Part shown: positions 22,119 to 23,140 of the stretch, in pieces | How positions within the stretch are numbered: the first letter of the stretch is position 1 | How the letters are laid out: the number at the start of each line of letters is the position of its first letter | Notes under the pieces: generated by a model | Seen by the model: the letters and a program-made list of their open reading frames with translations, nothing else | Databases searched by the model: none | What the model was told of the DNA's origin: nothing | Assembly: GCA_903920205.1 (NCBI GenBank) | Contig: CAIXLI010000063.1 | Location: forward strand, 7,913-71,912 | DNA: 64,000 bases | From: an uncultured Pseudomonadota bacterium | GTDB lineage: Bacteria > Pseudomonadota > Alphaproteobacteria > UBA9219 | Reading direction: 5' to 3' | Translations under genes and position numbers: made by a program

Positions 22119-23140
22119 TGCCGAAGAGCCCTTCTTCTGAAATGCGTTTTCATGGACTGATTCCTGCGTTTCTTGATATGATGATGGCCGAGCGCAATGC
22201 CGCTGCCAACACACGCGCCGCCTATGCGCGGGATTTGGGGGATGCGGCGATGTTTTTGGCGCGCAAGAAGGTCGATCTTGTGGATGCGAATGAGGACGAT
22301 CTTCGCGCCTATTTCCGATCTCTGGGCAAAAGCGCGGCGCGGACTCAGGCGCGGCGTCTGTCGGCCTTGCGTCAATTCTACCGTTTCCTGTGTTCAGAAA
22401 AACACCGCAAAGAAGACCCGACGCGCTCGATTGATGCGCCTAAATTAGGGCGGTCTTTGCCGAAATATCTCACCGAAAAGGAAGTTGGGCGGTTGATAGA
22501 AACCGTTGCGCAATACCCTGGCGATGAAGGCTTGCGTCTACGCGTGATGCTTGAGCTTCTTTACGCGGCGGGATTGCGTGTGACGGAATTGGTCAGCCTT
22601 CCTGTCTCCGCCATCCAATTTGACCGCGCCTTGGTTCTGGTTAGAGGCAAAGGTGACAAAGAGCGCGTCGTGCCGTTGGGCGAACCGGCTTTAAAGGCGG
22701 TGCGGGAATGGCTGCCAGTGCGCAAAAAAGAAATGGAAAGCAGCAAGCGTGGGGGGGGGAAGAAAACGTCGGCATCGCCCCAAGCGTCGCGCCTCCACTC
22801 CCTACCCCCTCCCTCAAGGGGAGGGGGAGGAAAAAGTTCTCCCTATTTGTTCCCTTCGCCTGTGCGCCCAGATGCCCCGATAACGCGGCAAAGGCTTTTT
22901 CAGCTTCTCAAACAACTGGCGCTTGCCGCCAAACTTGACCCCAAACGGCTTAGTCCCCATGTCGTGCGCCACGCTTTTGCGACGCATCTGATTGAACATG
23001 GGGCGGATTTGCGTAGCGTGCAAACCATGCTGGGGCATGCCGATATCGCCACGACTCAGGTATATACCCATGTGGCAAGCGACCGCCTGTCGCGCACGGT
23101 GGCGGAACATCATCCGCTTGCCAAAGGCGGCGCAAAATGA
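22118..23140 (+). CDS. xerD: tyrosine recombinase XerD carrying an in-frame insertion of about 30 aa
   Basis: N-terminal SAM-like domain and a C-terminal catalytic domain with HxxR...Y (HVVRHAFATHL...TQVYTHV). 340 aa, against about 300 aa for typical XerD. Confidence 0.85.
   Translation: MPKSPSSEMRFHGLIPAFLDMMMAERNAAANTRAAYARDLGDAAMFLARKKVDLVDANEDDLRAYFRSLGKSAARTQARRLSALRQFYRFLCSEKHRKEDPTRSIDAPKLGRSLPKYLTEKEVGRLIETVAQYPGDEGLRLRVMLELLYAAGLRVTELVSLPVSAIQFDRALVLVRGKGDKERVVPLGEPALKAVREWLPVRKKEMESSKRGGGKKTSASPQASRLHSLPPPSRGGGGKSSPYLFPSPVRPDAPITRQRLFQLLKQLALAAKLDPKRLSPHVVRHAFATHLIEHGADLRSVQTMLGHADIATTQVYTHVASDRLSRTVAEHHPLAKGGAK
22750..22840. repeat. GC-rich hairpin element (CCCCCTCCC-TCAAG-GGGAGGGGG core at 22806-22828) inserted in-frame within xerD; same family as the element at 28294-28315
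   Basis: The extra coding segment ...GGGKKTSASPQASRLHSLPPPSRGGGGKSS... is encoded by poly-G/poly-C tracts and a palindrome. The same CCCTCCC...GGGAGGG core recurs in the intergenic region upstream of metG. Confidence 0.5.

Follow-up and report, generated by a model that had tools for sequence, protein, structure and literature searches.

The DNA analysed here, called the window, is a stretch of 64,000 nucleotides from an uncultured alphaproteobacterium (GTDB lineage UBA9219; contig CAIXLI010000063.1, positions 7,913–71,912). It contains an intact xerD gene, which codes for a site-specific tyrosine recombinase and carries an in-frame insert of 84 bp. The insert folds into two hairpins, lies in reverse orientation relative to xerD, and is absent from the closest orthologues. 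According to the analyses described below, it is probably (about 0.7) a tolerated copy of a short palindromic, non-coding element of the repetitive extragenic palindromic (REP) or miniature inverted-repeat transposable element (MITE) type, located at a recurrent landing spot. The features of the locus are as follows (R1 is a covariance model of the element; L and P numbers are our handles for the loci and proteins compared).

22118–23140, plus strand: xerD, coding sequence of an intact site-specific tyrosine recombinase of 340 aa (open reading frame list, Pfam, catalytic columns, match to PDB 1A0P).
22751–22834, minus strand: in-frame insertion of 84 bp or 28 codons (G212–K239), a two-hairpin palindromic element reversed relative to xerD (codons compared against empty sites in L207 and L208; 28 aa fewer in orthologue P0002).
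22801–22830, no strand assigned: hairpin 1, a perfect 9-bp stem extended to 13 bp (sequence; RNA fold of −25.6 kcal/mol for the segment alone).
22749–22798, no strand assigned: hairpin 2, in which the G9 tract (22751–22759) pairs with CCTCCAC (22792–22798) and the interior is variable (minimum-free-energy and centroid folds).
22793–22830, minus strand: core three-block unit, reading CCT-CCCCCTCCC-CTTGA-GGGAGGGGG-TA-GGGAGTGG (model R1, model positions 1–38, 37.1 bits, E = 1.6e-7).

The host gene and the insertion

XerD of the window has the N-terminal SAM-like domain (Phage_int_SAM_1, PF02899, residues 17–95) and the catalytic domain (Phage_integrase, PF00589, residues 116–321, E = 2e-45) of tyrosine recombinases, and Escherichia coli XerD (PDB 1A0P) matches it at E = 2e-60. 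The R-K-H-R-H-Y set is intact: R154, K178/K181, H281, R284, H307 and Y316 do not vary across the 23 aligned sequences (the window and 22 relatives). The additional peptide (...KRGGGKKTSASPQASRLHSLPPPSRGGGGKSS...) was confirmed in the translation.

The nearest insert-free orthologue (P0002) consists of 312 residues and is 82% identical to the window protein. The segment between GKG and RHAFA has 112 residues in the window protein versus 82–84 in most relatives. By codon comparison, the insertion point lies after AAG CGT (K210–R211) and before (A/S)-S-P-Y, and the empty sites of L207 and L208 read ...AAA CGC GCT TCN CCN TAT. The alignment with orthologues thus delimits the insert to 22751–22834, and these limits hold to within a few bases. 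A preliminary description of this DNA, made from the sequence alone, gave XerD the correct length of 340 aa and an excess of about 35 aa; the excess is in fact 28 aa (84 bp). It also called the recombinase essential, which is an overstatement, as E. coli xerD deletion strains are viable with lowered fitness in co-culture (PMC5052618).

The identical insert DNA, with equal run lengths, is present in four independent metagenome assemblies from different samples (ENA), and the exact window XerD protein is on record from both NCBI and ENA. The sole difference in the insert among the four is a synonymous G>C within the G9 run, in L001 and L002. These results indicate that the homopolymers and the reading frame are not assembly artefacts, which was the concern raised in the preliminary description. 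The insertion in xerD is real. The xerD genes of the window and L001 differ by three synonymous and three nonsynonymous changes and one codon indel, too few to detect selection.

Position of the insert in XerD

The insert is located within the catalytic domain, between the Lys-bearing β-hairpin with its following helix and the LFPS strand. According to the HMMER alignment, residues 15–196 and 238–325 of the window protein correspond to residues 6–188 and 201–286 of E. coli XerD. The alignment breaks there, and thus the insert replaces the short connection at about residues 189–200 of E. coli XerD. The Pfam, AlphaFold2 and HMMER results do not agree with the earlier placement of the loop between the N-terminal and catalytic domains. 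In the AlphaFold2 model, a helix spans residues 189–211, and residues ~212–240 have a predicted local distance difference test score (pLDDT) of ~40 and no secondary structure. The pLDDT is 75–90 on both sides of the insert, and the subsequent strand and helices are confident. The 28-residue insert is thus predicted to be a disordered surface loop. The corresponding helix of E. coli XerD, αH, is located on the side that faces away from the DNA and the active site, and its residues E184 and Y187, with αE, form the docking surface of FtsK-γ (PMC5052618). From the position of αH, the insert would be a surface loop where bulk is likely tolerated, yet it stands beside a regulatory interface.

Anatomy of the xerD copy

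The hairpin in xerD is CCCCCTCCC-TCAAG-GGGAGGGGG, with the C-arm at 22805–22813, the loop at 22814–22818 and the G-arm at 22819–22827. The 9-bp stem is perfect, exactly as the preliminary description had it. Folds of 111 nt predict hairpin 1 on either strand as well, and as a short (20–40 bp) imperfect palindrome with a stable hairpin it resembles the REP elements. The segment CCTCCAC (22792–22798), to which the G9 tract pairs, is the complement of the third G block of the xerD copy. Accordingly, the poly-G tract of the insert is the outer arm of the second hairpin of the element. This two-hairpin layout is shared with the second copy in the window and with the composite relatives described below.

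Model R1 was made from 46 sequences, namely 42 viral copies, two xerD copies of relatives and the two window copies themselves. It matches the xerD site over its full length on the minus strand, whereas on the plus strand it matches the hairpin part only (21.3 bits). Thus, the xerD copy is in reverse orientation.

Second copy upstream of metG

The same palindromic core had been noticed upstream of metG. It is found there by the pattern (28295) and by model R1 (28291–28328), and it has the following features.

28291–28328, plus strand: intergenic three-block unit CCCCTCCCC-TTTAT-GGGGAGGG-TCA-GGGAGGGG (pattern match, sequence, model R1 at 38.6 bits, gene calls).
28321–28366, plus strand: hairpin 2 of the intergenic copy, in which the third G block runs into a GGGCCGCAAGGC / GCCTTGCGCCCC stem (RNA fold).

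The unit begins 8 nt past the stop codon of the DUF4389 gene, its hairpin 1 corresponds to 28295–28315, and the whole copy spans 28291–28366. The RNA fold of 28290–28366 shows two adjacent hairpins with −42.2 kcal/mol. The pattern CCCTCCC-N3-8-GGGAGGG has two matches in the window (22807 and 28295) and zero in 100 dinucleotide-preserving shuffles. With filters off, model R1 gives exactly two full-length matches in the 64 kb, 28291–28328 (+) and 22793–22830 (−). A terminator scan around the intergenic copy gave one minus-strand match, no more than in shuffles. The pattern, the unit comparison and the model support the earlier proposal of a dispersed palindromic element that lies in a coding sequence without breaking the frame. 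Two findings had been named that would speak against it, the same segment in relatives without repeat features and a motif unique in the genome; in fact, the close orthologues do not have the segment, and the motif occurs more than once.

The element family and its composite relatives

The family plan consists of a C-arm, a loop, a G-arm, a spacer of 2–3 nt and a second G block that opens the second hairpin, and it is common to both window copies. In hairpin 1 the C-arm is CCCCTCCC and the G-arm is GGGAGGGG; the spacer is usually YYR, and the second G block, GGGGAGGG, is the 5′ arm of a second, variable hairpin. The pattern CCCCTCCC-N3-8-GGGAGGG-N2-6-GGGAG matches at least 120 viral contigs of IMG/VR. 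Past what the pattern requires, the third block is extended to GGGAGGG or GGGAGAG in 135 of 140 distinct viral copies. The commonest spacers among these 140 are TTAG (23), TTGG (18), TCGG (13), CTGG (11) and CTAG (9), and G+GTAG occurs in only 5–7 of them. GTAG is present in the xerD copy (GGGGG-TA-GGGAG), and TCAG in the intergenic one. Inverted (+/−) unit pairs, 60–100 bp apart, are found at at least 10 viral loci. Both window copies are singlets with a second, different hairpin.

In the DNA of relatives (1.5 Mb), model R1 gives 11 matches, several of which are the xerD inserts themselves. Intergenic copies are found in L130 (as an inverted pair), L153 and L207. The pair in L130, the GTDB metagenome-assembled genome (MAG) contig CAIQVS010000079.1, is a REPIN-like doublet at 9072–9109 (+) and 9165–9202 (−), ~1.1 kb downstream of xerD. 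The single unit in L207 lies between rsfS and rlmH (11938–11976).

The Rfam gathering score was reached nowhere in the 64 kb, by the element or by any tRNA, rRNA, riboswitch or small RNA family. At an E-value threshold, the element-bearing loci gave miRNA-precursor matches only, which were judged spurious. The literal element sequences were not found in the searchable literature library; the literature matches to GGGAGGGG and CCCCTCCC are the GI REP of Pseudomonas fluorescens, with the opposite arm order, and phage terminators.

The insert DNA was compared for five other insert-bearing xerD genes. The insert of L210 (P0071) is a forward-oriented textbook unit, CCCCCTCCC-GCTTGC-GGGAGGGG-TTT-GGGGAGGG. 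L006 (P0004) likewise has its unit forward, read in a different frame, and L209 (P0077) has the terminal hairpin only. L005 (P0070) and L211 (P0118) have a common composite insert of ~140 bp, in the order unit, CCCCTCACCAGCAAAAACTAAGG, small hairpin, CCAAGTTTTTGCAA and the CCTCTCCC-GCAA-GGGGAGAGG hairpin, and the insert of L211 has one more hairpin nested within the composite. This is a perfect 12-bp hairpin, GGGATCGAACCC-GAAA-GGGTTCGATCCC (L211 4474–4542), nested in the G-arm of the element and similar to a tRNA T-arm. Palindromes thus appear to insert into palindromes. The L005 and L211 inserts are 83% identical, and also 83% identical at third codon positions, whereas identity in the flanking xerD is 69% over all positions and 49% at third positions. 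Therefore, the composite insert is younger than the split of the genes or constrained at the DNA level. It does not have the look of a conserved peptide, as judged from the sequences.

Using an 18-nt composite probe, 91 loci were found in JGI metagenomes, of which ~33 are true copies. These are modular, nested-palindrome elements with inverted terminal hairpins, and they are mostly intergenic. Several copies occur in single assemblies (five in Ga0206886, three in Ga0207006 and three in Ga0265331). The second G block of the composites pairs with a downstream CCCCTCACC. This pairing indicates that the three-block unit consists of hairpin 1 and the 5′ half of hairpin 2. Full-length composites end in the inverted hairpins CCTCTCCCC-TTGAG-GGAGAGG ... 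CCTCTCCC-TCAA-GGGGAGAGG. One composite copy lies in frame after the GIDA domain of a GIDA/TrmFO-type gene (L239 ~890–1040, JGI Ga0206886_1023), where it adds ...PLPSRERIENLSEFSTSEIRLDFLGEGVLSNGESPPHQQKLRLSEGAKPKFLRPPPPGGRNL... ahead of the conserved C-terminal region of the protein.

The G blocks GGGAGGGG-TTA-GGGGAGGG are a textbook G-quadruplex motif (G4Hunter 2.4–2.6) and a homopurine mirror repeat, and a quadruplex or triplex reading was considered. It was dropped, since the composite copies show the second G block to be simply the 5′ arm of the hairpin that follows and since the xerD copy of the block is degenerate (GGGAGTGG).

Recurrence in the XerD loop

The loop is enlarged in 11 of the 116 scorable XerD cluster representatives, which come from metagenomes; the remaining 105 have no insert. 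At least 8 of the 11 enlarged loops have the C-run/G-run peptide signature, and other XerD lineages have longer loops at the same site without the hairpin signature. Among 66 scorable loci of GTDB relatives (80 fetched), no enlarged loop was detected, and the closest XerD there is 70% identical to the window protein. In a neighbour-joining tree calculated without the loop, the direct neighbour of most insert-bearing XerD proteins is an insert-free one, and no two insert-bearing proteins group together. The orientation, reading frame and content of the inserts vary between lineages, and the insertion points vary by up to about two codons. The pairing in the tree and the differences in orientation, frame and content indicate that these scattered inserts represent about ten independent gains. 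As a control, MetG (513 aa) of the same window has an internal insertion of 5 aa or more in none of 120 representatives.

The repeated gains, the MetG control and the sparseness of the unit in the DNA of relatives make the XerD loop look like a landing hot spot, with an inferred enrichment of roughly 100-fold. The loop is presumably a preferred landing region, being structurally permissive and encoded by A-rich DNA (Lys codons) in a GC-rich genome. On these data, a preference for the target DNA, A-rich Lys codons within a GC-rich gene, is not distinguishable from selection that acts on a permissive loop. The stronger proposition that the loop at the end of αH is a preferred target of hairpin elements, or a positively selected landing site, is tentative and rather doubtful. 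If it is true, about ten independent colonisations of one region of ~20 bp would mean that insertion is directed by sequence or structure, or that a flexible basic loop next to the FtsK-γ docking surface is of benefit. The same selfish DNA would then have repeatedly remodelled the control surface of chromosome-dimer resolution.

Comparison with known elements

The Rickettsia palindromic elements (RPE) are small palindromic repeats found between genes and in frame within genes (Ogata et al., 2000, 2002, as summarised in PMC10969869 and PMC3733652). According to these summaries, RPE are ~150 bp long and form ten families in Rickettsia, and R. conorii has 44 integrations in unrelated metabolic genes, nearly half within open reading frames. 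The element described here resembles RPE as a small non-autonomous palindrome, both intergenic and in frame, which adds a peptide without destroying the protein, and in both cases the hosts are alphaproteobacteria. The xerD copy is in frame, free of stop codons and compatible with the fold as a predicted disordered surface loop, and its relative lies in frame in the GIDA/TrmFO-type gene. In contrast to RPE, the host is an uncultured lineage of the free-living type with 54% GC, the element consists of 84 bp of C-tract and G-tract hairpins, the copy number is seemingly low, and the loop of one gene is hit repeatedly across lineages. The likeness noted here is one of architecture and behaviour. 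Among named relatives, the closest are MAGs of unclassified Alphaproteobacteria rather than Rickettsia.

The REP and REPIN elements, which are mobilised by RAYT transposases (PMC3116915, PMC3733652), are likewise short GC-rich imperfect palindromes that occur as singlets and spaced inverted doublets, mostly extragenic and occasionally in coding regions. REPs of the GTAG and CGTC superfamilies are also reported inside coding regions (PMC10969869, PMC3733652). At one end they carry a conserved tetranucleotide, GTAG or CGTC (Di Nocera, 2013), and the xerD copy has GTAG beside its stem. However, this tag is not conserved in the present family, no RAYT is linked to it, and a high copy number is not established; therefore, the element is not classified as REP or REPIN proper. 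The P. fluorescens GI REP has the same arm sequences in the opposite order, with the G-arm first (GGGAGGGGGCTTGCCCCCTCCC) (PMC3116915).

Bacterial MITEs with in-frame intragenic copies (ERIC, Correia and others; PMC10969869) share with this family the lack of coding capacity, the terminal inverted structure, the nested hairpins and the in-frame fusions. The composite relatives (~140–230 bp) have inverted terminal hairpins, and the two ends of the window insert are formed by the G9 tract and the C/G hairpin. The differences from MITEs are that the termini are hairpins rather than simple inverted repeats, that there is no clear target-site duplication, and that no parent insertion sequence was identified.

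The xerD insert extends palindromic selfish DNA in housekeeping proteins, in the style of Rickettsia, to an uncultured alphaproteobacterial lineage and to a core enzyme of chromosome maintenance, and it defines a widespread C-tract/G-tract hairpin element that has no Rfam match. In-frame palindromic repeats that are tolerated are known, and the repeated colonisation of the XerD loop is a mildly surprising addition to them. The inserts beside the FtsK-binding helix represent a natural experiment on insertion tolerance and possibly on target preference. As regards annotation, XerD proteins that are over-long through Gly/Pro-rich loops are genuine and warrant neither trimming nor a frameshift flag.

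Interpretation and alternatives

We propose that one element inserted in reverse among the codons of a loop on the surface of the catalytic domain of XerD, probably by a transposition-like mobilisation. As its length is a multiple of three and the xerD frame has no stop codon, the insert would be translated as a 28-residue loop of Gly, Lys, Ser, Pro and Arg. The loop would stand on the face away from the DNA and the active site, where the enzyme could tolerate it, and so the allele would persist. The insert is presumably neutral or nearly so.

Several observations weigh against this reading. Only two copies are found in the 64 kb, one intragenic and one intergenic, abundance in the genome is not established, and in relatives the density of the unit is about one copy per 150–300 kb. 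The two window copies have only the unit of ~35 nt in common, so that neither is a recent copy of the other. Window-specific probes gave 0 matches in viral contigs (GGGAGGGGGTAGGGAGTGG) and 0 in JGI metagenomes (GGGTAGGGAGTGGAGGCGCG). No transposase or RAYT gene is linked to the element (the window open reading frames were not screened for Y1 transposases). Imperfect direct repeats of 5–7 bp flank some xerD inserts, and the intergenic copies show no consistent duplication; the possible target-site duplications AAGCGT/AAAAGT (window), AAATCA/AATTCA (L005) and CAACAAG/CAACAAC (L210) are no more than suggestive. The fold energies of the xerD insert are no better than those of shuffles (z = −1.1 and −0.5), and these scores are not significant because any sequence of such composition folds well. 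The neighbour-joining tree has no support values.

It is conceivable that an insert derived from a mobile element was kept as useful, in that a flexible, basic, Gly-rich loop modulates how FtsK activates XerD or how XerD interacts with XerC, and that the recurrence reflects positive selection. The position at the end of αH, whose E184 and Y187 contact FtsK-γ in E. coli, fits this idea, as does the frequency of inserts in about 10 of 116 XerD lineages versus none of 120 MetG. However, the peptides are wholly different between lineages (PPLAGGARGGV, LSPSRLREGFGEG, LPPPSRGGGG), with differing frames and orientations, and the third positions of the L005/L211 insert are as conserved as the others (83% each), which points to conservation at the DNA level and not at the protein level. 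Most lineages also do without an insert. We consider a useful loop unlikely. A single ancient composite insertion into the XerD of the ancestor of the clade, later eroded in some lineages and precisely excised in most, would explain why all inserts lie within about two codons of one another and why those of L005, L211, L209 and L210 have modules in common; the window insert, too, aligns loosely to the 3′ part of the composite. Palindromes are prone to deletion, and REPIN excision was detected in Illumina reads of P. fluorescens SBW25 (PMC3116915). This history would, however, need dozens of exact excisions, each restoring the loop MLG[DE]K[RK]xS, and the lengths are tightly 82–84. With 83% identity, versus 49% at neutral sites of the flank, the shared insert has diverged far less than these sites, and orientation and reading frame vary between lineages. 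An ancient single event is thus quite improbable.

If the insert had arisen locally, by slippage in G/C runs or by template switching at a quasi-palindrome, its likeness to the repeat would be convergence. The homopolymer runs in the insert (G9, C5) and a fold energy no better than in shuffles are consistent with such an origin. We regard it as very improbable, since the insert matches over its full length, including the spacer and the third block and in a defined orientation, a model made from mostly unrelated copies; the same architecture occurs at the intergenic site of the window and in the xerD loops of other lineages, and no alleles of intermediate length were seen. Finally, long G and C runs are error-prone, and the insert might be an assembly or sequencing artefact in these runs, or the gene a frameshifted pseudogene. 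This is hardly credible in view of the equal length and frame across the four assemblies, which represent different samples, the synonymous substitution within the run, the intact open reading frame and the presence of every catalytic residue.

Other features of the window

At 14351–14496, in the gap between gatB and cobS, there is a 146-bp palindromic element of a different type. It has two 43-nt arms with 93% complementarity, separated by 60 nt, and a small hairpin, ATACCGGCGAAAGCCGGTAT, lies within each of them. By its appearance, this would be a second family of MITE-like elements in the genome.

At 23751–24305, an open reading frame codes for the ribosome silencing factor RsfS with a Lys/Ala/Val-rich N-terminal extension, for which 15-nt periodic repeats (23808–23964) code. 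In related contigs the extension is called as Pfam HC2 (histone H1-like), and the lengths among relatives are 130, 169, 184, 186 and 306 aa.

The segment 50567–50677 consists of GC-rich imperfect repeats (CCGCAGGAG / CCGCCGCCG / CGCCAGCCG) with a start-to-start spacing of 9–15 nt and seven overlapping copies of a 48-nt unit. The tract probably encodes a low-complexity protein segment. An inverted repeat, TATACTCCGCCAACTTGAAAACCCGAGACAATT ..., is found at 18448–18564, with 33-nt arms that are 82% complementary and 51 nt apart.

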